Below the pieces are notes generated by a model, which had not been told where the DNA came from, ran no database searches, and saw only the letters and a program-made list of their open reading frames with translations. Made by a program: the position numbers and the translations under genes. A DNA stretch of 64,000 nt from a virus. The DNA lies in the UHGV virus genome UHGV-1550212. One strand, 5' to 3'. Below, piece by piece: positions 710 to 47,465 of the stretch. The stretch's first letter is position 1, and every line of letters starts with the position of its first letter.

Positions 710-3547
710 CTACTCAGCAGATGCACCTTGCAGTGACAATGTTGTACGATGTACGCCAATTCGAATGCCTTGAGCATTGATGATTTCAGTGTCAAGTACA
801 ATGAATCCGCGAGCAATCGTTTCATCATCATTGTTGCTGCTATCGCAGACATTCGTGTACGAAACTGCGCCACCGGCTGCAACGATGCCATCCATGAAGT
901 TGTCTGCTTTTGTTTTGACCTGCAAACGAACATTTGCAGTGTTTCGTTTGTACTGAGCAGACTTCAGATATGGCTCAATGTTGTCAGCGACATAGATGAG
1001 CAACTCAAGATTTTCAATGTAGCTGAATGCGCTGGTGTAAGCTACTTGTGCAGAACGAGATGTCAGCATTGTGATGACGCCTTGGTCTGAACGAGCGAGC
1101 ATGTTCCAACCTGCAGGTTCAAGGTCATCCATATCAGACCCTTCACCTTGCGAGACAATCATGTCAATGTCGGTTACACCAACACCAGACAGTGGCCACT
1201 CATCACCAGCAACGACGTCAAAGACATGCTTGCCTGCTTCTGTATGCTTTCTCATGAAGACATTCGACAAGATACCTGTTGCAGGAATCGTCATATCATC
1301 AATGCCATCATTGTAGCGAACATTGGCTACATATGTGATGAACGGTGCGCCATCAGTTTGACCTGCGAAGCTGAACAACTTGCTGTATGGTTTATCGGTG
1401 TTACCACCTGCAGCACAGTACTTAGACTCAATTGGGTCACCTGCATTGTCCTTAAAGTACGGGTCAGTTGAGCGGAACAAGTCATACTTGGTTGGCAGAG
1501 CAGAGAATGCGATTGCACGTTTTGAATCATTGCAAATCTTTGCAAACTCGTACTTTTGATTTGCTGCAATGTATGTCTTGAATGGGTCAACTACATAACG
1601 CCATTGACATTGATTGTGGTCCATCAAGCTACGATAAACGCCGCCTGAAATGAGAGCTTGCAGTACTTCTGTCTGACGTGCAGATGTGCCATCAACAAAT
1701 TGAGTTGCACGAAGAGCTACACCATGTAGATATGCGCCCTTGAAGAACTTAACTTGGTCAACAAGCTTCGTCAATGACCAAACAGACGCCTGCGAGGCGT
1801 ACTTCATCATTGAGCCATCTGCAAGTTCAAATTCGCCTTCAGCACCTGCAGCTTTGTATGCCAATGCACCAGTGAATTGATATTCAATCAGCACTTTGTT
1901 TTCTGCAAATGCGTCGTAGACATTCTTCTTCTCAAGCGGCGACAAATCAGCTTCAGTGATTGTGATTGGCATACCGCCATACTTGAGTGGCTTGTCTAAT
2001 GGCAGGCCATTTGAATCATATTCAACAAGGTCACCGCCATATGAAATTGTCTCACCTGCAGCTCTTGCTTTACGAGCTTTCGTTGATGAAGTTTCTGCAT
2101 CTGCAGACTCTTCGCCGCCAATTATGACTGTTGAGCCTTGTGGATAGATGAAGTTGCCCTTTGCATCCTGAGGGAATGCTACCTTTGCACCTGATTCGTT
2201 AGTGTACATTGGAATGCCGCCTTCCTTGCCAATGACAGGAACTGCGCGATATTCAGCTACAACTGCGCGACTTGTACAACGTACTGGCGAGCCATCTGCA
2301 CCAATAAAGATGTCGCCAAGCGAAATTGGCAACACTGGTGCAACAAATGAAGTCTTTGAAGCTTCACCTGGCTGCACAAATGGAACCATCACATTAACAA
2401 ACTCAGATGACACGAAGTCCTTGAGCTGTTCTTTTGTGATTGCGACATCTGTTGCTGTTGGCGTGCAGTCAATCTTTTCAGGATTGATGTCAGTTGACGG
2501 ACGAGCCATGCCAAGATATTGATGCGTAGCATCATCAGCAAACAGTGGACCTGCAGCGTCATCTACAGAAATGTAGTTCGAACCAAAGATGTCCACTGCA
2601 CGTTGGAAACGAGCATCTTCGATATCATTCGAATTGTAGAACTCGTCAACCTTGTCAGGGTCAATCTTACACATGATACCCGTCGTGTCTGACACTGCAT
2701 TCACAGCAGTTTCCAATGACAACTTGTTACCATTGATATCAAGCAAGTCAGGAATCAATGAGCCAGATACACGACCCATGTAGCCAGATGCAGCAAGCTT
2801 TGACAATGCCTCAGGACCATACATGCCATCAACTTGTGCACGGATACCATCCTTTGTGAAGTACTTGCCATATACAGTCGAACCTGCAAGTGACTCATAG
2901 TTCGTCAGCTTTTCAGAGAAGAACCAAACGTCAACCATATAGTCTGACACAAGGTCATTGCAATTCACGCCAGGCACATACATTGATGGGAAGCGGTCTT
3001 GAACTGACTTGATATCATAATCATAGCCAGTCAATGTCGTCGGCGTAATGAAGATTGTTGCAGACTTGTTTGTAAGTGTTGAGAAGTTGAGCAGTTGTAC
3101 AGGGTCAGTGCCAACTGCATTGAGCAGATTCAATGGCTCAGCTTTCCAGAAGTTTGATGTATCATAGACATCCTTAAATGGAACGTCTACAGGCGAGCCA
3201 TCTTCTCCTGAGCTGTTTGCAGCAAAAGTCACTCGTGACAACACATCGCTATCATTGAATGAGCGCAAGTTCAACACAAGAATTGGGCTTGTTGCAAGCA
3301 TTTGCTCTGCAATGAGACCAGCGAAACAGCCGGCACGCTCCAAACGCTTGTCACGTTGACCGAAAATTTCATGCAGCTGGTCTGCATCTTCAACAAGCGC
3401 GGCGCGATTGACCGGACCGTTCTTCCACTGGCCAGGCAGCAATCGAAGTGTTTGAGCGGGCAGTGAGTCAAGGCGACTTGCGTCAATGAACAGACGATAT
3501 GTCCCGACTGACTTGAACCGTTCAAATAAAGAAGTGTTATTTGCCAT
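710..3547 (-). CDS. Tail sheath-like structural protein (T4 gp18-like), 945 aa
   Basis: ORF 710..3631 trimmed to ATG at 3547 (MANNTSLFERF; ATG at 3628 also possible). C-terminus ...YTNVCDSSNNDDETIARGFIVLDTEI resembles the conserved sheath C-terminus as recalled; large size, structural neighbourhood. Confidence 0.5.
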   Translation of the reverse strand: MANNTSLFERFKSVGTYRLFIDASRLDSLPAQTLRLLPGQWKNGPVNRAALVEDADQLHEIFGQRDKRLERAGCFAGLIAEQMLATSPILVLNLRSFNDSDVLSRVTFAANSSGEDGSPVDVPFKDVYDTSNFWKAEPLNLLNAVGTDPVQLLNFSTLTNKSATIFITPTTLTGYDYDIKSVQDRFPSMYVPGVNCNDLVSDYMVDVWFFSEKLTNYESLAGSTVYGKYFTKDGIRAQVDGMYGPEALSKLAASGYMGRVSGSLIPDLLDINGNKLSLETAVNAVSDTTGIMCKIDPDKVDEFYNSNDIEDARFQRAVDIFGSNYISVDDAAGPLFADDATHQYLGMARPSTDINPEKIDCTPTATDVAITKEQLKDFVSSEFVNVMVPFVQPGEASKTSFVAPVLPISLGDIFIGADGSPVRCTSRAVVAEYRAVPVIGKEGGIPMYTNESGAKVAFPQDAKGNFIYPQGSTVIIGGEESADAETSSTKARKARAAGETISYGGDLVEYDSNGLPLDKPLKYGGMPITITEADLSPLEKKNVYDAFAENKVLIEYQFTGALAYKAAGAEGEFELADGSMMKYASQASVWSLTKLVDQVKFFKGAYLHGVALRATQFVDGTSARQTEVLQALISGGVYRSLMDHNQCQWRYVVDPFKTYIAANQKYEFAKICNDSKRAIAFSALPTKYDLFRSTDPYFKDNAGDPIESKYCAAGGNTDKPYSKLFSFAGQTDGAPFITYVANVRYNDGIDDMTIPATGILSNVFMRKHTEAGKHVFDVVAGDEWPLSGVGVTDIDMIVSQGEGSDMDDLEPAGWNMLARSDQGVITMLTSRSAQVAYTSAFSYIENLELLIYVADNIEPYLKSAQYKRNTANVRLQVKTKADNFMDGIVAAGGAVSYTNVCDSSNNDDETIARGFIVLDTEIINAQGIRIGVHRTTLSLQGASAE

Positions 3548-3653
3548 GTTCGTTATCGTATTTGTTGTAAATTGTGAAATGTTGCTTTGTTTGATTATAA
3601 CTTGATATATGTATGTATATGATGACATCAAACATGTTGTTGACCAAAATCAA

Positions 3654-3681
3654 AAAGACCAGCTCAATTGAGCTGGTCTTT
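3654..3681 (-). terminator. Intrinsic terminator, 28-nt perfect palindrome
   Basis: AAAGACCAGCTCAATTGAGCTGGTCTTT; T-rich on sense strand downstream; lies between stop of 3705..7820 and start of sheath gene. Confidence 0.6.
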
Positions 3682-3704
3682 CAAATGCTGTTTAACTGTC
3701 ATCA

Positions 3705-6700
3705 TTAGCCACGAATCAAGTCAACCAAGCGTTGCTGTTCAGGAGTCAATGAAGACTTTCCGCTGCCATCAATGTTTTCGTTAACGAAACCGACTGGCTG
3801 CTTAGTCGAATATGACTTGATTGCAGCCCAGTTACGTGAACGATAGAATGCTGCGACATCTGACTCATTTACGAAAGTGCGAACTGCTGCCTGAGTAGCA
3901 ATCAATGACTTCTGTTCAGGAGTCAAGCTTTCATAAATGTACTTGTATGCTGTTGGCATATGCTTCAGATACAATGGTGTATGGTCAATTGGCTGCAGGT
4001 TCTCATCCAAGACTGCTACACCAGCAGCATCATAGCGAGTTGCAAGCTGCTTTGTTTGACGACGCAATGCAGCAATTTCATGCTTGATGCTTGTCAAGCA
4101 TTCATCAGTTGCTTGTGCGCCAAGATATGTGCGAAGCATATCAGACAGCATCTTCTGATTTGCATCGGTCAAATCACCTGCAACTTCAATGCCAGTCAGC
4201 TGGCCATCTTTGCTGATGACTACAGAAATTGTAGAACCGTCGCGTTCAACTGTGCGGAAGTCAAAGTCATCGTATGACTTATCCTTAAGGACAGCTTCAC
4301 GAATATTGTCATCTACGCCTTCATTGACCATGCTCATGCATTCCTCAACATCTACGTCAAGTCCAAGCTCTTCTGCAGTTTCAGCAATCTTTTCTGCAAG
4401 CTGAGCTTTATTCTCAACTTTGTCAAGGTCTGCTGCATCTGATACAGCATCGACAAGTTCATCTGCCTGTGCACGAGTAATCGTTGAAGCATCAACAAGG
4501 CCATCAATGATTTGCTCTACATCTGCAGGTGTCGGCTTGTTGTCTTCTGCTGCTTCATTGATAAACTTGGCAGTCTTTGGCTTGTAGCTAAGCTTGCCCT
4601 CATTGACCATCTCATCCTGCAATTGTGCAGCGATGTATGCAATTAGCAATGACTTGTTGGCTTCAAGTTCATCGACTGCTTCAGCAGACTTTTGAGCTTT
4701 GATGAGTTCATCGTAAGCTGCTGCAACTTTGTCATCCATCGTAGACTTGTCAGGGTCAATGTTTTTGATGCATGTCTTGACAATATCATCCTGATAGAAC
4801 TTGTCAATGATTGATTTGTCTGTGTCAGAGTATGTTGCATATAACTTGTCTGCGACAATTGATTCATTGACAATCTTGCCTGGCTCAGATGCAGGAACAA
4901 GAGTCCACTTACCATCAACTTCTGCAACAATGCCTGAAGTCGATTCGCCATAAGTGACTGTTAGACGAGTGCCTGCTTCATTGTTGTCAATTGTGTTGAC
5001 GACTGCTTCGAATTCATTACCATCAGCGTCATAGATTTTGATGCTGTCACCGACAGCAGCTTCATCTACTGGTGCTTCGAAGAACTCTTTGACAAAGTTC
5101 TGAACATCAACGGGCAGACTGTCATATGGCTGTGATGCATAGTACTCTGAGTCAGCATCAAGGTAATTCTTTGAAAGCAGCCAAGCTTTTCGAGTAGCAA
5201 CATCTGCAGCATTCCAAGCATCGACTGACTCATCGCAGTCATCGACAAGTGCAAGATACTCATGGTCTTTCTTGTCATCAAAACGAAGAGTAATCTTTTG
5301 TTCGGGCTTGCCAGCAGGCCAAACTTCGACTTCAATTTCTGTAGTGCCTGCAACATTTTTGACTGTGCCTACAACAATCTTGTCGCCTTTGTTGATGCCA
5401 TTAGACATGTCGTATGGTGCTTCAATAGATTCATCTGTCGACTGAGCTCGAATTGCTGCAGCAATAGCATTACGAGATTCATTGTCGAACATCTCCCATG
5501 TAGCATTCGCAGCATCTTCTACACCAATCTTGTCTTTGCCAACCTGCTCAATCAACTGATTGCGGTCAGCTACTGAAGCATTGTACCACCAGTCTGCAGC
5601 AGTGTCAGATGCTTCATTGACAAATGCATTGAGCAATGCAGTCTGAACGTTATCAGGCAACTTGTCAAAGTCAACAAGCTCTACGTCATCTGCAATATTT
5701 GCTTGCTTTGCTGTTGCTTTACGGCCATCTGCATCAGACTTATTCCAGTCATCAATGAATGCCTGTTCAGCAGCAGATTCATCAAGCGCTTTGACAGTTT
5801 CATATCGACCGTCATACAGCATGTACTTATCGCCTTCTTTGATGGCTACAGACTCCTTGCCATTGTACTTGAATGACACTTTGTCACCATTGAAGCCGGT
5901 CAATTCAGCTGTGATTTTATCGCCATTCTTGTCATACACTTCAACTGTCTGCTCTTCATCAATGTTCAAGTGCTTCTTGAGTGCATCTACAAGTTCTTTG
6001 CCAAGAGCGTCTTCATTGTCATGGGCTTGCTGGAAGCAATCTTCATCTGACTTGTCAGGCTGAACAGCTTTCAATGCTGTTGCCCGATTAAGCATTGACA
6101 TCGTGCCCCAGATTGACATGAAGCTTTTGCCCTCATTGTCTTGTGCTTCGGCTTCGTCAATTGCATCAATGTCTTTCTCAAGCATTGCATGATGAGCAAT
6201 GTCGATGCCAGACCATTTCGTCTTTGCATTATATGGCAAACCAATATGCTTCGACAAAATTGACTGACGTTGGTCATCTGTGAATGAATCCCAAGCTTCG
6301 CCAAGTGTTGCATGCTTTGCTTCATCAGCAGCAAATTCTGTTTCAATCTTAAGTTTGTGGTCCTTGTCAATCAGTTGCCACTTGGCATTTGGACGATAGA
6401 ACTCAGACAATGACAGCTTGTCAAGAATGACTTTGCGTTCGTCATCTGACAATTCGTCCCACTTGTTGTCAGCAGATTCATCGATGTTGACGAGTTCTTT
6501 CTCAATGAGATTCTTGTCAAGCATTGCATCAATGATTGGCTGCTGGGCTTCTGCTGGAATGTCTTTGAACGACTTAATTGCAATGACAGCGTCTTTGTCA
6601 TCAACTTTAGCAGCTTCAACAATTTCTGTCTTCACTTCATCAGTCAAAGCGCCCCAAGCAGCATCGAGATAATCAAAGTTGAGAGCTTCATCACATTCAA

Positions 6701-7820
6701 CAATGCCATACTGCTTTGCAATGTCATTGTGCTTGTCAAGATTGCTGTTGAGTTCAGCTTCAATTGCTGCTTTGATGTCATCAATTGACTTATCTTCAAC
6801 TTCAAGCTCAAGAGCTTTTGCAAGTTCAGTCAATGCTGCATCATCAAGCTTGCTAATGTCATAAGGCTTAGCATCTTCATTTGTGAAGTCAATGCCAAGC
6901 AAAGACATTGCTTGCTTCTTGTTTTCTTCTGAGAGTGCATCGAATGCAGTTGCAAGACCGACATCGGTGTAGTCGCACCCAACTTCGTCAAGTAATGCTT
7001 CGACTTTCTGGATGTTTTCTACGCCAACTTCGTTAGCATCAGCATTGTTGTATGCCTCAACAAAACGTGATTGGTTTGTCATGGTAGTGAAATCTTCTAT
7101 TGATTCGTTTATGAGTTGCTGTTTGAGTGCATCCAATGATGCTGAGCCAATCAATGCATCAGGGAATAGCTTCTGCAACATACCTGTACGTGCAAGCTCA
7201 ATCAATTGGAGCATCAATGAGTTTGGCGAGTCTTCGTCATCTACAGATTCACAAATGAGAGTGTCTTTTGATTCATTAACTGAACCGACAAGATTGAACT
7301 CTGCATTCGAAAAGCCTGGCTGTGCAACCAAATCAAATGTCACGATTTTGAGAAGCTGAACTCTGCCAGTAGTTGGATTGACTACGCCAAGGGCGCGACT
7401 TGAAATGAACAATGGCGAACCTGCTGTAACAATTGCCCATGCAATGCGACCTGCAGGCGTATCAAGAATTGTAATGTAGCCTTCAAAACGTCGTTTTTCA
7501 GGATTCCATTCAATACTGTCCAATCTGTGGCTTACGTTTCCATAACGTACAGTACGTCGCTTAACATGTTCAAGTTCGCCAAGAAGTCGCTTTGCTTTAA
7601 TTGCAGGTTGCAATGCCTGTACTTGAGCAAAGTAATTCTCAAAGTCATACGTGCGCCCATTTTCGTTTTTCTGGTCCATGTATGCATACACGCCAAAAAG
7701 ACGACCAAGTGCGCCGCTTGGCACATGAGAATCTTCTGCTTCAACTACAAACTGACAATCTGCGCGGCTTTCAAGCATAAGTGAGGCTTCCCTGCCTTTG
7801 TACTTATATGACTTTGCCAT
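3705..7820 (-). CDS. Prohead core protease-like N-terminal domain (T4 gp21-like, ~210 aa) fused to ~1160-aa highly acidic low-complexity region (scaffold/internal-protein-like)
   Basis: First ATG at 7820 (MAKSYKYK). N-terminus ...NGRTYDFENYF...LLGELEHV...GYITILDTPAGRIA...FISSRALG matches prohead protease motifs as recalled; remainder is Asp/Glu-rich throughout. Confidence 0.6.
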   Translation of the reverse strand: MAKSYKYKGREASLMLESRADCQFVVEAEDSHVPSGALGRLFGVYAYMDQKNENGRTYDFENYFAQVQALQPAIKAKRLLGELEHVKRRTVRYGNVSHRLDSIEWNPEKRRFEGYITILDTPAGRIAWAIVTAGSPLFISSRALGVVNPTTGRVQLLKIVTFDLVAQPGFSNAEFNLVGSVNESKDTLICESVDDEDSPNSLMLQLIELARTGMLQKLFPDALIGSASLDALKQQLINESIEDFTTMTNQSRFVEAYNNADANEVGVENIQKVEALLDEVGCDYTDVGLATAFDALSEENKKQAMSLLGIDFTNEDAKPYDISKLDDAALTELAKALELEVEDKSIDDIKAAIEAELNSNLDKHNDIAKQYGIVECDEALNFDYLDAAWGALTDEVKTEIVEAAKVDDKDAVIAIKSFKDIPAEAQQPIIDAMLDKNLIEKELVNIDESADNKWDELSDDERKVILDKLSLSEFYRPNAKWQLIDKDHKLKIETEFAADEAKHATLGEAWDSFTDDQRQSILSKHIGLPYNAKTKWSGIDIAHHAMLEKDIDAIDEAEAQDNEGKSFMSIWGTMSMLNRATALKAVQPDKSDEDCFQQAHDNEDALGKELVDALKKHLNIDEEQTVEVYDKNGDKITAELTGFNGDKVSFKYNGKESVAIKEGDKYMLYDGRYETVKALDESAAEQAFIDDWNKSDADGRKATAKQANIADDVELVDFDKLPDNVQTALLNAFVNEASDTAADWWYNASVADRNQLIEQVGKDKIGVEDAANATWEMFDNESRNAIAAAIRAQSTDESIEAPYDMSNGINKGDKIVVGTVKNVAGTTEIEVEVWPAGKPEQKITLRFDDKKDHEYLALVDDCDESVDAWNAADVATRKAWLLSKNYLDADSEYYASQPYDSLPVDVQNFVKEFFEAPVDEAAVGDSIKIYDADGNEFEAVVNTIDNNEAGTRLTVTYGESTSGIVAEVDGKWTLVPASEPGKIVNESIVADKLYATYSDTDKSIIDKFYQDDIVKTCIKNIDPDKSTMDDKVAAAYDELIKAQKSAEAVDELEANKSLLIAYIAAQLQDEMVNEGKLSYKPKTAKFINEAAEDNKPTPADVEQIIDGLVDASTITRAQADELVDAVSDAADLDKVENKAQLAEKIAETAEELGLDVDVEECMSMVNEGVDDNIREAVLKDKSYDDFDFRTVERDGSTISVVISKDGQLTGIEVAGDLTDANQKMLSDMLRTYLGAQATDECLTSIKHEIAALRRQTKQLATRYDAAGVAVLDENLQPIDHTPLYLKHMPTAYKYIYESLTPEQKSLIATQAAVRTFVNESDVAAFYRSRNWAAIKSYSTKQPVGFVNENIDGSGKSSLTPEQQRLVDLIRG

Positions 7821-7953: not shown

Positions 7954-8622
7954 ATGTCAACAAACAATCATGGCAAGCTCAGATTGCTTGAGCTCAAAGA
8001 AGCACAGCCATATGACACGCTCAAAATTGGCATTGACGTATCAGTAGATGCTACTGGCATGTGCATGATATTTGGCAAAACTGTTGCGCTGTTCAAATTT
8101 ACGCCGCACTTGCCACCAGAAGATGACAGTTCAGATGATGTGAATTTTGTGCAGTTCAACAAAATCTATCTGCAAACATCATCTTCTGCAAGAGAACGCT
8201 CAAAAATGCATACTCGACACACACTTGCAAACAAGATTGTTGACGCGATTGATATGTTCATGCAGGAAATTTGGCCGAATAGCCCAGCAAACATTCAAAT
8301 TGTTACAGAAGGGTCTGCATATGGCTATGCCGCACACAACTCTAACAGCTTGGTAGAACTTGCTGAATTTAGAAGCGTGATTTTAGAAAGAGTCTATCAT
8401 CGTTGGCCACTCGGCACGCATCTAAGTCTTGACGTTATTGCGCCAAAATCATTGAAGAAACATGCAACCGGTGACGGCAAAGCAGACAAACTAAAGATGA
8501 TTGAAGCTGCAATTGCTAAGTTGACACACATTCATTGGGCAGGCAAAATTGACGATGAATGCGATGCATTGCATCTTTGTCTGTATGAGCCATTAAGCAA
8601 TCCTGAACCACGACTTTGGTGA
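7954..8622 (+). CDS. RuvC-like Holliday junction resolvase
   Basis: LKIGIDVSVDATG (Asp motif I), IVTEGSAYGYA (catalytic Glu), DDECDALHLCLY (C-terminal Asp/His motif); 222 aa. Confidence 0.65.
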   Translation: MSTNNHGKLRLLELKEAQPYDTLKIGIDVSVDATGMCMIFGKTVALFKFTPHLPPEDDSSDDVNFVQFNKIYLQTSSSARERSKMHTRHTLANKIVDAIDMFMQEIWPNSPANIQIVTEGSAYGYAAHNSNSLVELAEFRSVILERVYHRWPLGTHLSLDVIAPKSLKKHATGDGKADKLKMIEAAIAKLTHIHWAGKIDDECDALHLCLYEPLSNPEPRLW

Positions 8623-8788: not shown

Positions 8789-9049
8789 ATGGTGCACATT
8801 GATGGCTTACATGCAGCAGGTCAATATGCATATCTTGGCGTATCATTGTCACAGACAGGCGTCATATACCATGCAAAGTGGACATCTGGTTCTGGTACAG
8901 GACCTCAAGGCCCATTTAAGCCAGGCACAATTATCAGATTTGGCTTGCACAATTCAGTGTCATCAACTACAACGCCTCGTGCAATGCAAGCAATAGAAGT
9001 TGACGCAAAGCAATTTGGGCAAAATTATGCTATATTGTTTCAGCTGTAG
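8789..9049 (+). CDS. Hypothetical protein (86 aa)
   Basis: First in-frame ATG of track ORF 8741..9049 (GTG start); downstream of RuvC-like gene on same strand, followed by hairpin at 9094. Confidence 0.3.
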   Translation: MVHIDGLHAAGQYAYLGVSLSQTGVIYHAKWTSGSGTGPQGPFKPGTIIRFGLHNSVSSTTTPRAMQAIEVDAKQFGQNYAILFQL

Positions 9050-9167: not shown

Positions 9168-10961
9168 TCAATTTTGTGTTGCAACGTCATCAGTCTTGTT
9201 ATCAACTGGCTCATCGTCGACATGTGTATCAACATCAATGCCAGAAGCTGCAGCAAGTGAAACATCATTAGCGACGCCTTGTTGTTCAAGTTGTTGTTGA
9301 GCTTGCTTTGTTTGAATTGCGACAAGTCTTGCAGCTTCCATTGCAAGCTTAAGATTCTCTTGAAGTTCGATATCAAGCTGTTCAGCATTAGCTTGCATGT
9401 CTTCTTTGCTTAAGCCAAGATACTTGTTGATAAGCCAATTGCTTGAGAAGAATGGGCGTTCAGTATCAGACATGTTAAGTGAACGAACAAGTGAACTGCG
9501 AATGTCTTCGATTGTATGAATACGCTTCTGAAGCAATGTGAGCTCCATTTGCGTCTGGAAATGATTGTATCTATTGAATTTGAGTTTTAGCGCATTCAAA
9601 ACTTCATTGTCGCCAATGTAGTTATTGTTTTTGATGCACATCAAAACATACACAGGCTTCAATATGATTGCAATGCCAAATCTACGCATCAAAGCTGAAA
9701 TAAAGATTGCAAAACGACGCTCATCACGCTGAATTGACTCTTCAGAAACATTCCACATGCCACCGCCATCATCGAATCTGCTTAGAGGCAGCTTTGACAG
9801 ACGTTGTAAGTTATTGCGGAAATATGTGACTGCTGAAGTATCAGATAAGTCAGGCATGCCTGTGCCAATTGTTTGAATGTTGGGTTTGCCTGCATTAGTG
9901 TCAGCCATCCAAAATTCGCTATTGAAAGGCACAGATGCTTCGCCATTAACTTGGAGTTCGCCGGTTTGATTGTCGAATTCAATTTTTTCGTGGTACTTAT
10001 TCATTGCTTTACGCAATGTTTCCTGTGCAGCAGCTTTCAGTTTACCGCCAGTAGGAATTGTGATAAGTGAACGAAAACGAGAAGCTGTCGTAGCATATGC
10101 AATGCGACTTCGCTCCAAAATCCTGAGCAAGTTGAATGCACGAACAAGACGCTCAAAATATGACATAGACCCAACCATGTCATCGTTCCACTGCAAATAT
10201 GCTACTTGCGAATCAAGCAAGTTGATTTTTTCTGAGTTGTTAGACACAAATGCTGGTGCTTTGACATCAAACATTGTATGTGTCTTGAACATATCTTGTT
10301 GAGACTTATCATACTGCCAGAAGAACATTTCACCCTTCTTCATAGGCGTCAATGCAAATGCATTCAACTTTTTGATGCCAACAATATCAGTCGGCTCATC
10401 TGCATTATCAAACACAATCTCATAGCCAAGTCTGCCTCGTACAAGATATTCACGCAACAATGCTCTAACATCTTGTTTGCGAGGTTCAGAGTTCAACCCA
10501 TTGAATGCATACATCAAATAGACTTGCTTGAATGCATCCATAAAGTCATCTTTGATTGTCTGCTTTGCTGTGTCGTCTATCTCAAGTTTATCGATGTCAC
10601 AAAAATCAGGCTCGCAAAAGAAATTACTATCGGAATTGAACACGATGCACTCATCAATCATGCGGTCAAGAATGTCGTCGAGTTCCGGTTCTGCACTTAA
10701 GATGTCATATTTTTTGGCTCGAAGATAACTTGTCAATCCAAAAAGATTCTTTTTAGGTGACTCTTTCTGATTGAACACGTCATCAGTAGACAACACAACA
10801 ACTTCTTGGTCATTGATGTTATGCTCACCTGTATATGCTGCTTTCTCCAAATCTGCATCAGACCCAGACTTGTGCACATTCAATTGCTGCAATGGACTGT
10901 CTTTCGGAATTGAGCGTAATGCATCAGTTCCCAGATATGTTCGTTTGGTCTTTTTAGCCAT
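9168..10961 (-). CDS. Portal-like protein (T4 gp20-like), 597 aa
   Basis: ATG at 10961; ...SEFWMADTNAGKP...YFRNNLQRLSKLPLSRFDD resembles portal core motif (VPLSRI region) as recalled. Confidence 0.55.
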   Translation of the reverse strand: MAKKTKRTYLGTDALRSIPKDSPLQQLNVHKSGSDADLEKAAYTGEHNINDQEVVVLSTDDVFNQKESPKKNLFGLTSYLRAKKYDILSAEPELDDILDRMIDECIVFNSDSNFFCEPDFCDIDKLEIDDTAKQTIKDDFMDAFKQVYLMYAFNGLNSEPRKQDVRALLREYLVRGRLGYEIVFDNADEPTDIVGIKKLNAFALTPMKKGEMFFWQYDKSQQDMFKTHTMFDVKAPAFVSNNSEKINLLDSQVAYLQWNDDMVGSMSYFERLVRAFNLLRILERSRIAYATTASRFRSLITIPTGGKLKAAAQETLRKAMNKYHEKIEFDNQTGELQVNGEASVPFNSEFWMADTNAGKPNIQTIGTGMPDLSDTSAVTYFRNNLQRLSKLPLSRFDDGGGMWNVSEESIQRDERRFAIFISALMRRFGIAIILKPVYVLMCIKNNNYIGDNEVLNALKLKFNRYNHFQTQMELTLLQKRIHTIEDIRSSLVRSLNMSDTERPFFSSNWLINKYLGLSKEDMQANAEQLDIELQENLKLAMEAARLVAIQTKQAQQQLEQQGVANDVSLAAASGIDVDTHVDDEPVDNKTDDVATQN

Positions 10962-10981: not shown

Positions 10982-12220
10982 CTATACACGTCTTGTCAAT
11001 TTGACATGACCGCAGTCATCTGCAAGCAGTTTAACATGACCGCAGTCATCTGCAAGCAGTTTAACATGACCGCAGTCATAAACTTTGACGAAGCCTGCAT
11101 CAATCATAGTTTGCTCATCATGATTGCAGTCAAGCACATGTGTATGAGTTTTCATATTGTACCAATGCAAGCCGATGTAAAAGTCAGTCTTGTGATATGC
11201 GTCAGTATATAATCGTGGGTCATCTATAGACAAATCAAGTTCGACGCAGTCAGCAGTCTGCAGTTGTTCTGTGTCAGTTAGCAATGATTTGACAAGCTTG
11301 ACTACAGCATCAAATGACATCCAATCAAATACAGTGATGCATCTATAGCCATGTTGCATAGCTGTGCAACATTTGTCAAAATGCGTAGTTGATGCAATTG
11401 GCTTGTTGACTGTAGAACGACCAGTAGCAAAATCAAATGCAAATGTGCTGTTATGCGTAAATGACGGATTGACATCAATTAGCAAATTGTCATATCGCAA
11501 ATCAAATGCGTAGCAATCTACGTCATGTTCATATTCAAAATCAACACCAGTATGCTCAAGTAGCATATCATGTAACAAGACGTTTGGCTTTGTAATGATT
11601 TTGCCATTTGCAAGTCTGCACTTCTGAGTTAAACAATGCCAAGGCACGCCATATCGTTCAAGTGTAGTGTTGCTAATCTTCTGCAAATTGCCAAAACCGC
11701 TGCCATAGCGTAATTGCTTTGTGACTGTTTGCTGTGCAACATTACCATTAGCATGACCAAACTTGTTGATGTTTGTTTGCTTGCGCTTAGCATTTGCAGT
11801 TGCAATATCAACAGATTCAAGTGACTCAAGAAATTTTGACATGTCGCCAAGCCCATTGCCATATAGTTGACGTTTAGTGTCAACAACTTTTGTCATGTTC
11901 CAGTGCTTGTAGCCATATCGAGCTTCTTTTGTCGCAAATGCTTTGTCATAGTTGCCAAAGCCTGCATGACCATATCGTTCAACTTTTGTTGCAGCAATTT
12001 TGTCTGAGACTTCTTTAAGCTGATGTTTGTATTCAACGCCAAACTTGCGCAAATTTGATATGCGAATGTTGAACACTCGTTTGACTTTTGTATGCGTAGA
12101 GCCTTTGTCAAGCTTTGCATATGGAATTTGTGCAAGTGCAGCGTCTCTTTCATCTTCAAGCTCTCTTATTCGAGCTTCAAGTGCATCACCAGCCAAAACT
12201 TCTATGCGTATAGTCTGCAT
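10982..12220 (-). CDS. Repeat/nuclease-like protein: coiled-coil N-terminus, 6-7 degenerate TK-x-(E/A)RYG repeats, C-terminal LLIDVNP..THNS domain; candidate free-standing homing endonuclease
   Basis: 412 aa; GDALEARIRELEDERD, repeated ...TKVERYG...TKEARYG...RQLYG...TLERYG; paralog of 16405..17604; C-terminal 30 aa is a triplicated decapeptide. Confidence 0.6.
   Translation of the reverse strand: MQTIRIEVLAGDALEARIRELEDERDAALAQIPYAKLDKGSTHTKVKRVFNIRISNLRKFGVEYKHQLKEVSDKIAATKVERYGHAGFGNYDKAFATKEARYGYKHWNMTKVVDTKRQLYGNGLGDMSKFLESLESVDIATANAKRKQTNINKFGHANGNVAQQTVTKQLRYGSGFGNLQKISNTTLERYGVPWHCLTQKCRLANGKIITKPNVLLHDMLLEHTGVDFEYEHDVDCYAFDLRYDNLLIDVNPSFTHNSTFAFDFATGRSTVNKPIASTTHFDKCCTAMQHGYRCITVFDWMSFDAVVKLVKSLLTDTEQLQTADCVELDLSIDDPRLYTDAYHKTDFYIGLHWYNMKTHTHVLDCNHDEQTMIDAGFVKVYDCGHVKLLADDCGHVKLLADDCGHVKLTRRV
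11004..11079 (-). repeat. Perfect 30-bp tandem repeat x2.5 at the 3' end of CDS 10982..12220
   Basis: Unit ACATGACCGCAGTCATCTGCAAGCAGTTTA; encodes DDCGHVKLLA x3; each unit carries inverted repeat ATGAC-CGCA-GTCAT. Confidence 0.9.
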
Positions 12221-15781: not shown

Positions 15782-16405
15782 TTATGCATTGGCAATTTCA
15801 GATGGCATTCTGAACTTGATGTCATTATACACAAATGTCAATGTGAATGTCATCACGTTCTGGTCTACACGAGTTTTGTCATATGTGAGTTCTGAAATTG
15901 CAGAAAACACGACATCAATGAAGTCGATGCCAAACAATGGTTTCTTTGCACCGCCATATGTCGCTACAAATCTGCAGGGCTGAAAGTAGATAGTTTCGCG
16001 TTTATCGTTAGCGTATCTGAACAAACTCTCTAAGCAACAAAAATAGCTTAAACCACCATTCGTCAATCTGCATGTCACCTGGATTCGCTTATCAAGTGCT
16101 TGATGAATTGTCTTGCTGCCCTTATGAAACTGTGTAATTGACTTCTTCATGCCACTGTCATCAAGAACTTTATTGACATTCTGAGTAACAATTGGCATCG
16201 ATATGCCCATCAATGACACAGACTGAATTGAATCATGCAACAAGTCATTGATGTCATAAATGATTTGTGTTGGTTGTTGCACAAACACTTTATTGTAAGT
16301 ATCAGCAATATCTTGCGGAATCAAATCAATTGGCAAGTCAAAGCGAAACTGGTCTGACCGTGTATCGAGAATGAGCATATTTTTGATAATTTGTTTATGT
16401 ACCAT
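15782..16405 (-). CDS. Hypothetical protein (207 aa)
   Basis: ATG at 16405 overlaps stop of upstream gene (TAATG). Confidence 0.6.
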   Translation of the reverse strand: MVHKQIIKNMLILDTRSDQFRFDLPIDLIPQDIADTYNKVFVQQPTQIIYDINDLLHDSIQSVSLMGISMPIVTQNVNKVLDDSGMKKSITQFHKGSKTIHQALDKRIQVTCRLTNGGLSYFCCLESLFRYANDKRETIYFQPCRFVATYGGAKKPLFGIDFIDVVFSAISELTYDKTRVDQNVMTFTLTFVYNDIKFRMPSEIANA

Positions 16406-17604
16406 TAACTGTCATACGACCAGTGACCACAGTCATACACTGGCACAAATCCAGTGTCAAGCATTTCTTGCTCAATAAAGCCATCATCAAGCAAATGTTC
16501 ACCTGACTTCGTATTGACCCAATGCTTCTTAATTGTGCATTCATCAACCACAAAGGGATTAAGTGCATTGTCAGTGCAATCAATGAACACATTATTCAAA
16601 TGCGCGTCAATGACATGCAGCACAATTTCTGGGTTGTGCCAATCAAATATCATAAGTGGCGTGTAGCCACATACAATTGCAAGTTGTTGCTTCCACCAAT
16701 GATAGTTTGGCTGTTTTGCTTCTGCGGCATTTCGTTTAAAGCCATACACGCTATTATGAGTATGCGTCGGGTTAACGTCAATTAGCAGATTGCCATAATA
16801 CAGGTCATATGATGTTATGCCAACATCATGTTCAAACTCAAAATGCACACCAAGATGTTCTTCAATGTATGATTGCCACCATCTGTTTGGCGCAGATATG
16901 ATTTGCCCATTTGCTTGCATACATTTATTTGTCATGCAAAACCATGGCACACCGTAACGTTCCATACAGGTTTTTGAAATTGCAGCAAGCCATTCATCTT
17001 TGTCTCTATGCGGCCATGCATAACCATAACGCAGACGACATGTTTGTTGAGCTTTAGCAACGATTGGCGCTAAACGTTCACCGTATATTTCACGTTTAGT
17101 TGCGATGGCTTTGCGTGGATTAGTCCATCCAGCATCACCCCATCGCTCAAGCTTCGTTTGCTGAGATTTTTCAACAATCAGTTCAAGATTCTCACCATAT
17201 TTTTGACGACGAGTTTGCATTGCTGCAACATAATCTGTAATGCATCTATGGCCATACAAACGTTCTTTTGTCGCACTATGTGCTTTATCGCCATATGAAC
17301 TGCCGTAGCGTGCAACTTTAGTGGCAATTGTTTGCTTGATGTTGCCTGCTTTAGAACCATAACGAGCTTCTTTAGTTGCTACGCATTTTTGTTTGACTTC
17401 TGCTCTGTTCCAATTATGCTCAACGCCATGTTTACGAAGATGGCCAATTTTCATGTTGTACACGTTTTTGATATGACCATGAGATGTCTTACGTGGTGCA
17501 TATCGTACAAATGGTGTTTCTGCAAGCAACTTATCTCGTTCAGCTTCAAGCTCTTTAATTCGAGCTTCAAGAGCTTCACCAGTCAAATGCTCTACATGTT
17601 TCAT
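16405..17604 (-). CDS. Repeat/nuclease-like protein, paralog of 10982..12220 (399 aa)
   Basis: GEALEARIKELEAERD; repeats ...TKEARYG...TKVARYG...KERLYG...REIYG...RLRYG...MERYG; C-terminus ...NLLIDVNPTHTHNS. Confidence 0.6.
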   Translation of the reverse strand: MKHVEHLTGEALEARIKELEAERDKLLAETPFVRYAPRKTSHGHIKNVYNMKIGHLRKHGVEHNWNRAEVKQKCVATKEARYGSKAGNIKQTIATKVARYGSSYGDKAHSATKERLYGHRCITDYVAAMQTRRQKYGENLELIVEKSQQTKLERWGDAGWTNPRKAIATKREIYGERLAPIVAKAQQTCRLRYGYAWPHRDKDEWLAAISKTCMERYGVPWFCMTNKCMQANGQIISAPNRWWQSYIEEHLGVHFEFEHDVGITSYDLYYGNLLIDVNPTHTHNSVYGFKRNAAEAKQPNYHWWKQQLAIVCGYTPLMIFDWHNPEIVLHVIDAHLNNVFIDCTDNALNPFVVDECTIKKHWVNTKSGEHLLDDGFIEQEMLDTGFVPVYDCGHWSYDS

Positions 17605-18205: not shown

Positions 18206-19495
18206 CTATTCTTTTGGCAGAAGTTCAGCAATGCGTGACTGCAATTGCTCTTTCTGCTTCAAGTAGCTATCAAGAATTTGCTGATGAGCTGCATAGCCCT
18301 CTGATGTCGGGTCCATGCTCTGCATTGTTACTTGAACTGCAGCAATGTCTGATTCAACATTATTGAGCACTGTTTGATATGCATCAACTTGTGCAGATGC
18401 ACGAATTGCAGCTTTCATTGCAGTATCATAATGTTCACGCCACATTGACTTGATGCATTCGATTTCTGGTGTGCTTACAGAAATTGACTGCAATGCTGCA
18501 ATGAGTGCAACAATGCCGCCATACACTGTAATGATGCCAGACTGAGTATCAAGCATATTGAAGTGATTGCCATCAACTGCATATACAATGATAGGCGCAG
18601 ATTGCAGCTTAACTGAATTGTCGAGAACTGCAAGCTTTGTGAACTGCTGTGCTACTGCAATGACTGCATTGCAAATTGCCTCTGCAGTCTCAAATTCGCC
18701 AGCAACTTGCATGCTAACTTGATTGAGTTGCATATAAGTCTTGACTTTCTCAGCGAATTCAAGTGCAGTCATAACTTGTGAATCAAGCTCAACTGCATCT
18801 TGGCCAACAATGCGAACATGGCCGACAATTGTGTCAGCAAAGAATGCTTCAGTCTTTGGACAATACTGAACAAGTGATATTGCATTCATCAATGCGATAG
18901 ATTCTGCTGATGGCTCAGATGTTGTAGCATACAGCAAATTGCCATCAGACACAGTGAACCACTTGCCAACTACAGGCAGACCCATGATGTCACCTGCAAT
19001 AATTGCAAGCACATGCTGGCAATCACCTGTAGCAATGATGTGTTCGGGATTTGCTGCGTAGTAGATGTCTTTTGCCTGCTTAATGAGCGACTTCACCTCA
19101 GGGTACATGTCATAATTGTCAAGCACGCCATCAACTGCAATTGCTCGAATGATTGGCTCATCAGTTGATGCAACATCTACTGCATCTTCGATTGCTGACG
19201 CAGCCCTTTGCATATTTGCAGAGCCATCACTCATCAAATCCTCCATGACAAGTGATGCTTTGAAGCCAAAGCCATCTGCACCAATTGCTGTTTTCTGTGA
19301 TTTTGCAAATGCGCGTACAGCAGCATCTTTGCTATTTGCGGCGCTTTCCAAAATCAATGCAGCTTTTCGAAGAGTCAGACCAGACTTTTTGATTTGTGCA
19401 AGTGACTCATTGACAAAGTTTGCACCGCCAAAAGTCAATGCTTTGATGCCTTTGATACCTTGAACAAATGCATCAACGTTTACAGTATGTTTCAT
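18206..19495 (-). CDS. Hypothetical structural protein (429 aa)
   Basis: ATG start; Ala/Val-rich; next to Ig-repeat protein gene. Confidence 0.6.
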   Translation of the reverse strand: MKHTVNVDAFVQGIKGIKALTFGGANFVNESLAQIKKSGLTLRKAALILESAANSKDAAVRAFAKSQKTAIGADGFGFKASLVMEDLMSDGSANMQRAASAIEDAVDVASTDEPIIRAIAVDGVLDNYDMYPEVKSLIKQAKDIYYAANPEHIIATGDCQHVLAIIAGDIMGLPVVGKWFTVSDGNLLYATTSEPSAESIALMNAISLVQYCPKTEAFFADTIVGHVRIVGQDAVELDSQVMTALEFAEKVKTYMQLNQVSMQVAGEFETAEAICNAVIAVAQQFTKLAVLDNSVKLQSAPIIVYAVDGNHFNMLDTQSGIITVYGGIVALIAALQSISVSTPEIECIKSMWREHYDTAMKAAIRASAQVDAYQTVLNNVESDIAAVQVTMQSMDPTSEGYAAHQQILDSYLKQKEQLQSRIAELLPKE

Positions 19496-19502: not shown

Positions 19503-20993
19503 TTATGCCTTTTTAGATTTGCGCTTTGCGGCAACTACGACTTCTGCTACGATAGCTTCTACAGTAGCTTCAGTTACAACAGACTTGTCTGCAACTTTTA
19601 CAAGAGCTGCATGCAACTTGTAGTTGCCGACTTTGCTGAAAGTGCACTTGAATTCTGTTGTTGCGTTGTATTCTGCAGGTACTGCAAAACCACTGTCAGG
19701 ACCCCATACACCAGTGTCTTCAAATGTCCAAGACTGTCCTTGTGAATCTGTTGCAGCGAATGTCACATGACCATCTTCAGGTGCTTCTACAATTTCATAT
19801 TGCAGCTGAACGCCATCAACACCTGCTTTACCAACGACTTCAGTTGCAAGTGTTGCATTGATTGCAACTTCTGTTGTAGGCTGAATACTTGCAGGGACAT
19901 CTACAGAAATCTTGTATTCTGACACTTCAGGCTGAACTGGCTCAGCAACAACTACTGTAGACTCTGCTTCAACAACTACACTGTCATCAGCAACCTTGGC
20001 AAGAACTGCATGCAACTTGTATGCGCCTGCCTTGCTAAAGATTACAGTGAACTTTGTAGTTGCATTGTATTCTGCTGGAATGTCAAAGCCTACTGCAGGA
20101 CCCCAAGTTCCATTATCGACGAATGTGTATTCATTGCCAGTTGTGTCAGTAGCCTTGAATGTCACATGACCATCTTCAGGTGCTACGTCCACGCCATAAC
20201 GGAACTGAACTTTGTCAACGCCGACGTCGCCAACAGTCTTCGTTTTGAATGTTGCATCAAGCTCAACTTCAGTGTTTTCGATTATTGTTTCAGGTGCAGA
20301 CATTTCGAACTCGTACTCAGACACTGTTTGTGCAGCTTGTTCAAGTTTGATGTTCTTTGTCTTGTTTGAACTCATAGTCTCACGACCAGCATGGCTAATG
20401 TAGCCCTCTTTAGACACTTCCCATACAATTTCTTCGCCTGACAAAACAGTCAACGAATTGCGAACTTCGCCATTCATCTTGATAACTGCATCTGCAGGTT
20501 CTACATTAATTGTCAGTGTAGCTTTGCTAAGCTTAACAAGCTCCACTACTTGAATGACATCATGATTTGTGAGCGTGATTGTGCCCTCCTGAGATTCATA
20601 GCCCTCTTTCGACACTTCCCACTTAATTGGAATGCCTGCGGGCACATTCTCAAGCATCTTTGTAGCCTCACCATTGATTTCTACATGAGCATCTTCAGGC
20701 ACTGGCTGAATTGTGATGCTGAACTTGTCTTTACCAGGTTCAGGGTCTGGTCCGGGTCCTGGGTCATCACCAGTAATTGCAGGGATGATAGTGTTTTCGA
20801 TGACTTTCTGAGCTTCTGCAGTTGTGCCATAGAATTTGAGAGTTTTCTTGGCTTCTTCTACAGACATCTTCTCAAGATTATCTGCAAGATATGTCAGACC
20901 AGTGACTGCAGCAATTTTCTGCCGCATTTCTGGGCTAATGACTACACCAGTAGATTTGACTACTGGAGCAGCTTGTTTTTGTTTCTTTGCCAT
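19503..20993 (-). CDS. Ig-like/beta-sandwich repeat protein (Hoc-like decoration protein candidate)
   Basis: Trimmed to ATG 20993 (MAKKQKQ). Two pairs of internal repeats: ...KWEVSKEGY.. x2 and ..VSEY.....APEDGHVTF.ATD......VPAEYNATT.. x2. Confidence 0.55.
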   Translation of the reverse strand: MAKKQKQAAPVVKSTGVVISPEMRQKIAAVTGLTYLADNLEKMSVEEAKKTLKFYGTTAEAQKVIENTIIPAITGDDPGPGPDPEPGKDKFSITIQPVPEDAHVEINGEATKMLENVPAGIPIKWEVSKEGYESQEGTITLTNHDVIQVVELVKLSKATLTINVEPADAVIKMNGEVRNSLTVLSGEEIVWEVSKEGYISHAGRETMSSNKTKNIKLEQAAQTVSEYEFEMSAPETIIENTEVELDATFKTKTVGDVGVDKVQFRYGVDVAPEDGHVTFKATDTTGNEYTFVDNGTWGPAVGFDIPAEYNATTKFTVIFSKAGAYKLHAVLAKVADDSVVVEAESTVVVAEPVQPEVSEYKISVDVPASIQPTTEVAINATLATEVVGKAGVDGVQLQYEIVEAPEDGHVTFAATDSQGQSWTFEDTGVWGPDSGFAVPAEYNATTEFKCTFSKVGNYKLHAALVKVADKSVVTEATVEAIVAEVVVAAKRKSKKA

Positions 20994-21084
20994 AAGATAT
21001 TGTGAATTTGGTTGTTTATTCTTAACAAAATATGTACATACAGATGCAACAGATGATATGTCAGATACACAAAGCTGCATAAAA

Positions 21085-21122
21085 TGACCAGACTTGCAAA
21101 TAAATTTAAGCAAGTCTGGTCA
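21085..21122 (-). terminator. Intrinsic terminator after DNA polymerase C-terminal gene
   Basis: TGACCAGACTTGC / GCAAGTCTGGTCA, 13-bp stem, AT-rich loop, A4 on plus. Confidence 0.5.
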
Positions 21123-21137
21123 TCAGTTTTGATTGCA

Positions 21138-29931: not shown

Positions 29932-30168
29932 TTATTCGAAATCCGTGTCATCTGCATTTTCATTAGGGTCATAGATAAGCCATACAAATGCTGCACAGCC
30001 AAGTATGAATAAGCCTCCGCCAATGATTGTCGTAAAAACCGAACCAATCCAATGCTTCATAATATCACCGAGCGGATTCAATGTTTCATAGCCAATCATA
30101 AATGCGACAAATACAACTATTATTGCTGCTATTGCTTTGTTTGTGGTATTTCGTTTTATTGTTGCCAT
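29932..30168 (-). CDS. Small membrane protein (78 aa)
   Basis: Trimmed to ATG 30168 (MATIKRNTT...); two hydrophobic segments. Confidence 0.5.
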   Translation of the reverse strand: MATIKRNTTNKAIAAIIVVFVAFMIGYETLNPLGDIMKHWIGSVFTTIIGGGLFILGCAAFVWLIYDPNENADDTDFE

Positions 30169-30199
30169 TGTAGTAGAGGTTTGTTGTGTTCTGTATATT

Positions 30200-30221
30200 A
30201 TGTTCGAATATATGAGGACAT
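30200..30221 (-). promoter_or_regulatory. Leader palindrome ATGTTCGAATATATGAGGACAT (copy 1 of 3)
   Basis: Between promoter 30237..30265 and start codon 30168; near-identical copies at 47427 and 54380. Confidence 0.5.
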
Positions 30222-30236
30222 ATATTATATATAGAT

Positions 30237-30265: not shown

Positions 30266-30291
30266 ACTTTTATAAACCAAATTTCACAAAA

Positions 30292-47448: not shown

Positions 47449-47465
47449 ATATTATTTGTAAAAAT

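Follow-up and report, generated by a model that had tools for sequence, protein, structure and literature searches.

A T4 gp21-type prohead protease fused to a long, acidic, cassette-variable extension in a T4-like phage genome: a candidate self-processing head-assembly polyprotein

In the virus genome UHGV-1550212, of which a stretch of 64,000 nucleotides (the window) was analysed, one open reading frame (ORF) encodes a protein of 1371 amino acids (aa) and 151.9 kDa that begins as a prohead protease and continues as a very long acidic chain. The window is that of a distant T4-like genome. This raises the question of what a single chain of this kind does in a phage group where T4 itself keeps the protease and the core protein in separate genes, 21 and 22. 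The coordinates given in the original prediction proved exact, and the strand, which had been left unstated, is minus; a plus-strand reading of 3705-7820 was rejected, its translation being riddled with stops. A possible alternative start, an in-frame TTG, lies upstream at 7904; the majority of homologues begin at the ATG. A protein identical to the 1371-aa product (P0001) is present on ENA contigs. Our analysis shows that the fusion is real and conserved. Its product is probably a self-processing head-assembly polyprotein, composed of a gp21-type protease (residues 1-183) and an acidic scaffold or core chain of ~131 kDa.

Profile, fold, aligned residues and gene context identify residues 1-183 as a T4 gp21-type prohead protease, and the first three of these agree with the earlier assignment of the N-terminus. 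The phrog_207 profile (head maturation protease) matched residues ~11-321 with E=5.4e-32. Pfam S77 (PF03420) reached 22.6 bits (E=8.4e-5), which is under its gathering cutoff of 27 bits, and many homologues carry precomputed PF03420 (S77) or PF20034 (S80) matches. Single-sequence and profile searches of the PDB sequences returned neither 5JBL (T4 gp21) nor any other significant match, so that a comparison of folds was required. The AlphaFold2 (AF2) model of residues 1-330 has a core with a predicted local distance difference test score (pLDDT) of 65-89, and its top three PDB matches in Foldseek were chains of 5JBL (E=8.6e-9 to 3.2e-8, probability 1.0, template modelling (TM) score relative to the target 0.72-0.73). 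The same search gave weak echoes to the proteases of herpes simplex virus 1 (HSV-1) and varicella-zoster virus. H85 and S140/S141 carry the same numbers as in T4 gp21, of which we take His85 and Ser140 to be the catalytic residues, and are invariant in 24 sequences including a distant group of 806-1123 aa. The T4-type head gene context of such a protease (gp20 portal, gp23 major capsid protein (MCP)) is also present. Near the N-terminus, SLMLE17↓S (QLIIE↓S in relatives; the arrow marks the predicted cut) resembles QLLIE9↓T of T4 gp21, which is activated by self-cleavage of nine residues at that site (PMC9958956). Among close strains the protease domain is 74-89% identical and occurs in two N-terminal allele types, with most of the extension 93-100% identical. 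This lower conservation of the protease suggests recombination mosaicism inside the gene.

The fusion of this protease to the extension recurs in 51 full-length homologues of 1316-1661 aa, derived from independent assemblies and falling into four sub-clades, in all of which the ORF is intact. Their identity decreases to 33-35% at 100% coverage, yet both ends are alike in all of them, the extreme C-terminus reading (L/F)T(P/A)EQQxL(V/I)DxI(R/K)G. A missed frameshift, considered at the outset, is excluded by these intact fused homologues. The sample labels of their contigs (ZEEV15, COST17) suggest human gut metagenomes.

The arrangement had been thought unusual. It is not unique, because fusions of protease, extension and C-tail of ~500-700 aa are common and make up a recognised family (phrog_207; pT24 BPT24_140), and versions of 1207 aa (MA9V-2) and 1347 aa (MA9V-1) exist in cultured Chryseobacterium phages (PMC10537231). 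Both ends of the phrog_207 profile were matched by our protein, profile positions 12-281 in the N-terminal match described above and positions 439-504 of 519 by the C-terminal segment alone (E=0.004). With 1371 aa here and 1316-1661 aa in the clade, the length lies outside the 476-703 aa usual for phrog_207-type representatives. A profile of residues 1080-1371 was searched exhaustively against 1.84 billion representatives. The whole region was found in this clade only, and its last ~100 aa also matched the C-termini of 476-703-aa proteins, 11 of which have an N-terminal gp21-type protease (E<=5e-47, N-terminal hidden Markov model (HMM)). As both ends are shared with phrog_207, pT24 and MA9V-2, the protein is a phrog_207-type protease with extension and tail that has ~850 extra middle residues.

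In MA9V-2 and pT24 the fusion gene immediately precedes the MCP gene, without an intervening scaffold gene, and a C-tail-bearing ORF cut by the end of contig L009 also adjoins the MCP gene. On contig L010 a stand-alone gene for extension and tail, P0084, occupies the position directly upstream of the MCP gene that belongs to gp22. It shares 65% identity with residues 385-663 of P0079, a fusion of 663 aa, and has no protease domain in the 1.4 kb upstream. Two further candidates for stand-alone scaffolds, P0077 and P0069, were rejected since both start at contig edges; P0084 alone is internal. In Sphingomonas phage PAU the protease (246 aa) and the scaffold (277 aa) are separate proteins. These cases show that fusion and fission occur between the gp21-type protease and the protein in the scaffold position, and it is mainly this pattern, together with the MCP-adjacent gp22 position in relatives, that leads us to call the extension a scaffold or core chain. 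The idea that the fusion takes the place of a separate gp22-like gene was borne out in part: the extension is covalently linked and inspection of ~74 kb (the window plus 10 kb downstream) revealed no separate scaffold-like gene, but the arrangement is not unique.

We found no paper in the literature that describes this architecture. The giant genes of MA9V-1 and MA9V-2 appear in gene tables without discussion (PMC10537231), and a comparative survey of jumbo phages mentions the gp21 orthologue alone (PMC7824862). A separate set of gp21-type proteases of 806-1123 aa (P0052-P0058, of which P0058 is in NCBI), encoded on contigs of up to 268 kb, has PT-repeat (PF04886) extensions and a different basic C-terminus. 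It looks like another independent lineage of long protease fusions on jumbo-sized contigs.

Asp and Glu together make up 19.3% of the whole protein and 20.6% of residues 184-1371 (1188 aa, pI 4.31). This is the most acidic product among the window ORFs of at least 150 aa, for which the median is 12.1%; the corresponding values for T4 gp22 are pI 4.58 and 22.3%. Thus, the acidity proposed for a ~1160-residue extension is real and covers ~1190 aa, although "throughout" was slightly overstated, as the last 131 residues are basic (pI 9.0). Instead of a uniform acidic tail we found a modular chain of small predicted domains that carries conserved cleavage motifs and whose basic C-terminal module is likewise conserved. 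Conservation falls into zones: a conserved protease (1-~200), a conserved patch at ~270-300, a variable and indel-rich region (~316-1080) with conserved islands, and a conserved, gap-free C-terminal region of ~290 aa.

The AF2 model of residues 185-1371 is of low confidence overall (pLDDT 57, predicted TM score (pTM) 0.22; 403 residues at 70 or above, 520 below 50), so that global structural matches would mean nothing. Locally it predicts beads on a string, in which helical domains (~245-444, 994-1074, 1094-1164), four small beta modules (~625-668, 814-848, 926-975, 1186-1214) and many helix-turn-helix hairpins are joined by low-confidence linkers. A hairpin repeat, W-x-x-[L/A/F]-[S/T/D]-x-x-x-[R/K]-x-x-[I/L/V], occurs six times (W389, W454, W510, W745, W775, W869). 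The repeat HMM gave 22 matches of at least 8 bits in other sub-clades compared to none in 40 shuffles, several of them being non-orthologous copies. The repeat resembles the C-tail motif ESLTPEQK.LI and the terminal motif SLTPEQQRLVDLI, and may represent multiple weak copies of a docking element. Long internal repeats were not found by BLAST self-comparison. No part of the extension matched Pfam, PHROG, PDB sequences, PDB structures or BFVD significantly, the Foldseek search of the extension model against PDB and BFVD yielding nothing at E<=0.001, and the tail HMM did not match T4 gp22, gp67 or gp68 or PAU gp152. Residues 1101-1130 (~4430-4520, minus strand), IIDGLVDASTITRAQADELVDAV, resemble the tandem unit …GTITQAQADAI… that is present in 6-8 copies in a group of signal-peptide-bearing repeat proteins of 275-348 aa (P0075, P0080, P0083, P0086).

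The pattern Φ-x-N-E-[S/A/G] was first noticed in a comparison with MA9V-2, where it recurs in the two extensions and close to the N-terminus of each MCP. In the strict form [LIV]NE[SAGN], a post hoc definition, it occurs nine times with P1 Glu at residues 183, 239, 736, 986, 1074, 1089, 1167, 1319 and 1348, as against 0.33±0.57 in composition-preserving shuffles (0 of 2000 reached this number). Its density is 6.6 per 1000 aa versus 0.16 in the other window proteins. All sub-clades are enriched in a looser form, [LIVFMYW]xNE[SAGN], with 6-13 sites where 0.5-0.9 are expected; so are MA9V-2 (12 vs 0.7) and pT24 (4 vs 0.5), and P0085 has 10 such sites. T4 gp22 is enriched in its own motif [LI]xE (16 vs 5.7). 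For our protein the a-priori motif [LIV]xE was found 37 times with 24.6 expected (p=0.002), and the phiKZ-type [SAG]xE was not enriched (22 vs 25.9 expected). Eight sites hold their position as [LIV]-x-E-[small] across sub-clades; P3 and P1 are kept, with N, T, D, C or S at P2, which is the pattern expected of a T4-like L/I/V-x-E↓ specificity. Most sites are located at or beside pLDDT minima between predicted modules.

Two of these sites frame the extension. The candidate release site at the end of the protease domain is VNES or INES in all seven sub-clades compared, with N182, E183 and S184 invariant in 24 sequences, and aligns with ITE↓S near the C-terminus of T4 gp21. The candidate maturation site close to the C-terminus is kept in all seven sub-clades and in the wider fusion family. 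In all related fusions the C-tail core is followed by a ΦNE↓S site and then by an amphipathic, basic-ended tail of 15-25 aa; here the terminal peptide of residues 1349-1371 is a candidate docking tail for the capsid protein or the core. The N-terminus of the MCP has two comparable sites, VLDE22↓S and YMNE47↓S, at the positions of which relatives have INE↓A, LNE↓S, ITE↓S and ILE↓S. YMNE47↓S is near the end-point of the 65-residue propeptide of T4 gp23 (PMC9958956). FDNES at 778-782 was rejected as a cleavage site, having Asp at P3, lying within a conserved helix repeat and being FNDQS in two sub-clades. Elsewhere in the window, an ORF of 429 aa and unknown function (18206-19495, minus strand) carries FVNE30↓S near its N-terminus and LILE↓S at ~50, and its product may be a head or internal protein from which the protease removes a propeptide. 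The ORF at 48973-50067 has LFNES at residue 19 but an enzyme-like N-terminus.

Table 1. Positions in the window of the fusion gene, its parts and sites, and adjacent features
Feature	Position	Strand	Remarks
Whole gene, protease-scaffold/core polyprotein (probable)	3705..7820	-	ATG 7820, stop 3707-3705
gp21-type prohead serine protease, residues 1-183	7272..7820	-	20.5 kDa, pI 9.0
His85, GELEH motif	7566..7568	-	Aligned to T4 gp21 His85 (GELNH85)
Ser140-Ser141, FISSRALG motif	7398..7403	-	Aligned to T4 gp21 Ser140-Ser141 (GVSSRGLG)
V181-N-E183↓S184, candidate release (R-like) autocleavage site	7269..7280	-	End of protease domain
Residues 184-315, acidic linker and start of conserved helical domain	6876..7271	-	Predicted helical domain ~245-444, pLDDT 64-87
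Residues ~316-1080, variable modular middle	4581..6875	-	Conservation profile, AF2, cassette map
Residues 1081-1371, conserved gap-free C-terminal region	3708..4580	-	Predicted helical bundle 1094-1164, beta module 1186-1214, C-tail
Residues 1241-1348, basic C-tail module	3777..4100	-	MP..YK.IYESLTPEQK.LI..QAAVRTFVNE..V..FYRSRNW..I
V1346-N-E1348↓N1349, candidate maturation (M-like) site	3774..3785	-	23 aa from C-terminus
Residues 1349-1371, terminal peptide	3708..3776	-	...SSLTPEQQRLVDLIRG; near-invariant between sub-clades
Intrinsic-terminator-like hairpin	3653..3682	-	13-bp stem, loop 4, T-run; 23 nt past stop
Tail sheath	710-3628		Within the window
T4-type portal	9168-10961		phrog_213, E=5e-54

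In the polyprotein model, the precursor would enter the prohead core via its extension, and the basic C-terminal module with the invariant last 23 residues would dock to the inner face of the gp23-type MCP or to other core subunits. Once the shell is completed, the protease would become active and cut after Glu in [L/I/V]-x-E↓[S/A/G/N], mostly V/I-N-E↓S. It would thereby release itself at E183↓S184, as at a herpesvirus R site, and detach the docking tail at E1348↓N1349, as at an M site. Furthermore, ~7 additional conserved inter-module sites would be cut and the MCP propeptide trimmed at VLDE22↓S and YMNE47↓S, and dismantling of the core would make room for the DNA. Cleavage itself, the scaffold function and the binding partner of the tail are predictions. 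Known systems offer precedents for such steps: T4 gp21 degrades the gp22 core and trims gp23 (PMC9958956), and the C-terminal autocleavage of giant-phage proteases has been taken to reflect prohead targeting (PMC5694885).

Several points weigh against this model. It is a computational one, and the MA9V papers list the corresponding gene without comment on its role. The gp23-type MCP gene is outside the window, ~6 kb downstream of the fusion gene on contig L004 of the same phage, where it spans 20239-21954 and encodes 571 aa, and the tail sheath, a 191-aa ORF and a DUF7487 gene are located between the two. The ~74 kb examined are part of a genome of ~176 kb, so that a major scaffold gene may be encoded elsewhere. 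Neither sequence nor structure comparison detected homology of the extension to T4 gp22, PAU gp152 or solved and predicted scaffolds. As to the cleavage motif, its strict form was chosen after the fact, and [LI]xE, the T4 motif set in advance, shows no more than a modest enrichment (24 vs 16.7, p=0.03). The ~9 strict sites would yield fragments of 15-497 aa, far above the small peptides expelled by T4. Many of these fragments are predicted to be folded, and internal proteins that stay in the head may account for this at least as well as a scaffold that is discarded. Finally, a 1:1 ratio of protease to scaffold differs from that in T4 (~55 gp21 : 580 gp22) unless a protease-less product is made too. 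In-frame Met203, Met214, Met247 and Met305 are present downstream of the protease. The search for a nested protease-less product gave neither a convincing internal promoter nor a convincing start, and a scan for sigma-70-like promoters gave 9 versus 7.7, which is not an enrichment; Shine-Dalgarno sequences are unusable for judging internal starts, since the gene's own start is without one.

A new element of this protein is the presence or absence, at strain level, of cassettes of 59-167 aa in the middle region. They are gained and lost in combinatorial patterns among strains that are 93-100% identical elsewhere in the extension. Insertions comprise 69 aa after residue 315, 103 aa after 377, 85 aa after 559, 61-167 aa after 795 and 107 aa after 863, and deletions of 59-124 aa occur within residues 622-735. 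This explains the length range of 1316-1575 aa among near-identical strains. The cassettes are unrelated small domains; Pfam and PHROG scans of the cassettes and of the extension segments gave nothing significant. Several cassette junctions are located at ...NE↓ or ...D↓ES-type sequences. The middle region can be read in two ways, as a tolerant spacer or as modules that are individually functional cargo.

The second way leads to the strongest of the rival explanations, which we regard as unlikely but worth serious attention: the extension mainly delivers small folded domains into the prohead instead of acting as a scaffold. Inter-module cleavage would then free internal head proteins, comparable to the internal proteins (IPs) and Alt of T4 or the ejection proteins of giant phages, that are injected with the DNA, and the interchangeable cassettes would reflect an arms race with host defences; a partial scaffolding role may coexist. 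Such a role is consistent with the discrete helical and small beta modules of the AF2 model (pLDDT 70-87, separated by low-confidence linkers), with strict sites that are sparse (nine) and placed at module boundaries to give fragments of 15-497 aa, and with the 59-167-aa cassettes that are present or absent at no fewer than six (>=6) positions among strains more than 93% identical. The beta modules resemble stand-alone phage proteins of 61-65 aa (probability 1.0, TM ~0.7, with E-values of 0.007-0.18 only). Against it, no cassette or module matches a known effector, anti-defence or other family, and the overall acidic composition is scaffold-like; the IPs of T4, by comparison, are basic. In addition, the conserved flanks and the C-tail behave as a structural assembly element beside MCP genes, and the cassette variation is equally consistent with a tolerant spacer. 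A precedent for the route exists, as T4 packages its internal proteins through the core and injects them after trimming by gp21 (PMC9958956).

A second rival explanation, that the great length of the extension determines, or makes room for, an unusually large or elongated capsid, is improbable. Scaffold and core proteins do influence head size and shape in T4-like phages, and the extension is ~4 times longer than gp22. However, the longest contigs of the clade are 175-181 kb and thus T4-sized, and the length of the extension does not track genome size. The protein is 527 aa in pT24 (235 kb) and 1207 aa in MA9V-2 (218 kb), whereas PAU (219 kb) and T4 (169 kb) have separate proteins of 246 and 277 aa and of 212 and 269 aa, respectively. 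Moreover, near-identical strains differ between 1316 and 1575 aa, and the variants of 1316-1371 aa are all on contigs of 175-181 kb. The original prediction's link to a large capsid therefore found no support.

The weakest alternative, that a sequencing or assembly frameshift joined the protease to a downstream gene or that the gene is decaying, is effectively refuted by the 51 independent intact ORFs in four sub-clades and down to 33% identity, by the 1207- and 1347-aa versions in the genomes of cultured phages (PMC10537231) and by the conservation of both protein ends. A single contig, L007, could be cited in its favour. It has a 1-bp deletion in an A4 run (GAATCAAAAGAC to GAATC-AAAGAC) right after VNE183↓S184, equivalent to ~7268-7272 of the window, by which its region 6001-6872 is left with a 192-aa protease ORF (P0059) and the remainder in another frame. 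As this is one contig against more than 50 intact ORFs, it is most simply an assembly error or a defective variant, and its downstream frame is without a nearby start codon. It is curious that the deletion sits precisely at the domain boundary, though this is seen in one contig alone.

With the polyprotein model as the preferred reading, the protein can be compared with known systems. It shares with T4 gp21 and gp22 the protease fold, the aligned His85 and Ser140/141, an L/I-x-E-type motif with Glu at P1 (predicted here), a motif-rich acidic core protein and the vicinity of genes for a T4-type portal, gp2-like and gp4-like proteins and a gp23-type MCP. In contrast to T4, both functions would be combined in one chain of 1371 aa, and the gene is not MCP-adjacent. 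The extension is ~4.4 times longer than gp22, shows no detectable homology to it and contains predicted folded modules, and the strict sites are far sparser with a strong bias to Asn at P2.

In herpesviruses the R site frees the protease and the M site parts the scaffold from the MCP-binding tail. The layout of HSV-1 UL26/UL26.5 (assemblin) is similar in that an N-terminal serine protease of the same structural clan is followed by a fused scaffold-type chain, with one site right after the protease (here E183↓S184) and another, ~23 aa from the C-terminus (here E1348↓N1349), before a conserved peptide. The herpesvirus protease is likewise made as a fusion with the scaffold (bioRxiv 10.1101/2024.05.03.592320). 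Differences are the lack of sequence homology to the herpesvirus scaffold, the predicted cleavage after Glu instead of at Ala↓Ser, the many extra internal sites, and an extension that is much longer and cassette-variable.

The phrog_207 fusions are close in architecture. BPT24_140 of the Tenacibaculum phage pT24 (527 aa) is 38% identical in the N-terminus and 42% in the C-tail, and the C-tail module, the ΦNE↓S site and a short terminal helix are common to pT24 and the other phrog_207 fusions; the ~850 extra residues are found here, residues 1081-1240 and the middle modules being confined to this clade. MA9V2_209 of MA9V-2 (1207 aa) and ORF151 of MA9V-1 (4044 bp, 1347 aa), both annotated as 'prohead core protein serine protease', are giant gp21-type fusions of cultured Bacteroidota phages with 33% identity in the N-terminus (E=2e-31) and a similar C-tail (E=2e-5), and in MA9V-2 ΦxNE[SA] is strongly enriched (12 vs 0.7). 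Their genomes are 213-218 kb. As their middle ~850 aa are without detectable similarity to ours, the giant expansion was probably independent in MA9V and in this clade.

The proteases phiKZ gp175 and SPN3US gp245 are also gp21-related, cleave after Glu and remove their own C-terminal region (PMC5694885). Unlike our protein they are ~260 aa long and use an (S/A/G)-x-E motif, which is not enriched here, and the inner-body or ejection proteins are encoded by separate genes. Homology of the extension to phiKZ-type inner-body proteins was not found. In lambda gpC/Nu3 and P2 gpO the capsid protease has a C-terminal scaffold domain, and lambda additionally makes the scaffold from a nested start. These proteins are alike in that a capsid protease covalently bears a scaffold, and differ in belonging to unrelated protease families, in being much smaller and in having no modular cassette array.

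The principle of the protease-scaffold fusion is already established, and for this protein we infer the mechanism. The structure and targeting rules of the T4-type scaffolding core are unresolved (PMC9958956). One chain that combines protease, core mass, an apparent docking tail and legible conserved cut sites provides a compact system to study what directs core proteins into the prohead, what keeps the protease inactive and how the core is cleared, and the cultured analogues MA9V-1, MA9V-2 and pT24 make the polyprotein idea testable. The R-like and M-like sites would extend the herpesvirus-style precursor layout to T4-like phages, which would strengthen the evolutionary link suggested by the common protease fold. 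One would not expect an assembly protein to show cassette polymorphism between near-identical gut-phage strains. Should released modules remain in the head, this would be a new way of packaging variable injected proteins. A protease-addressed cargo polyprotein, loaded via the C-terminal docking module and cut into injected internal proteins with defence-driven turnover of cassettes, is a tentative idea that we consider doubtful; if true, it would be the polyprotein counterpart of the separate IP genes of T4.

Near-identity DNA searches against GenBank phages yielded no match. A Shine-Dalgarno sequence is missing upstream of ATG 7820, which may fit a Bacteroidota host; this reading is supported by the nearest cultured relatives, whose hosts are Chryseobacterium, Tenacibaculum, Flavobacterium and Prevotella. 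Other genes of the window are gp2-like and gp4-like, belong to nucleotide metabolism, or encode a gp55-like late sigma factor and a split family-B DNA polymerase. A small opposite-strand island with a RuvC-like resolvase (7954-8622, plus strand) and an 86-aa ORF (8789-9049, plus strand) separates the portal gene from the protease gene; the rest of the window is almost wholly on the minus strand. At least four DUF7487 paralogues are interspersed among the structural genes, two in the window (10982-12220 and 16405-17604, both minus strand) and two on L004 (18759-20150 and 22302-23363). Copies flank the MCP gene on both sides, one paralogue has weak PHROG 'homing endonuclease' matches, and all resemble selfish inserts that may have disrupted the T4-like order of head genes.

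The family-B DNA polymerase is encoded in two ORFs (21138-22430 and 24724-26229, minus strand), which are ~2.3 kb apart with four small ORFs between them. Genes for a thymidylate-synthase-like protein (43784-44842, minus strand; possibly a pyrimidine hydroxymethylase), a beta-glucosyltransferase-like protein (56000-57175, minus strand) and a dCMP deaminase (61751-62476, minus strand) hint at modified DNA bases as in T4. The T4 late promoter TATAAATA is absent from the window. A near-identical leader of ~45 nt, atatatgttctcatatattcgaacataatctaaatctcatttaga, and a recurring motif 'tgttgtacaatat...catataat' are found ahead of several genes, upstream of 45530-47407, 50432-54358 and 29932-30168 (at ~47408-47470, 54359-54435 and 30169-30290, respectively). 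Leader and motif are probably phage promoter or leader elements.

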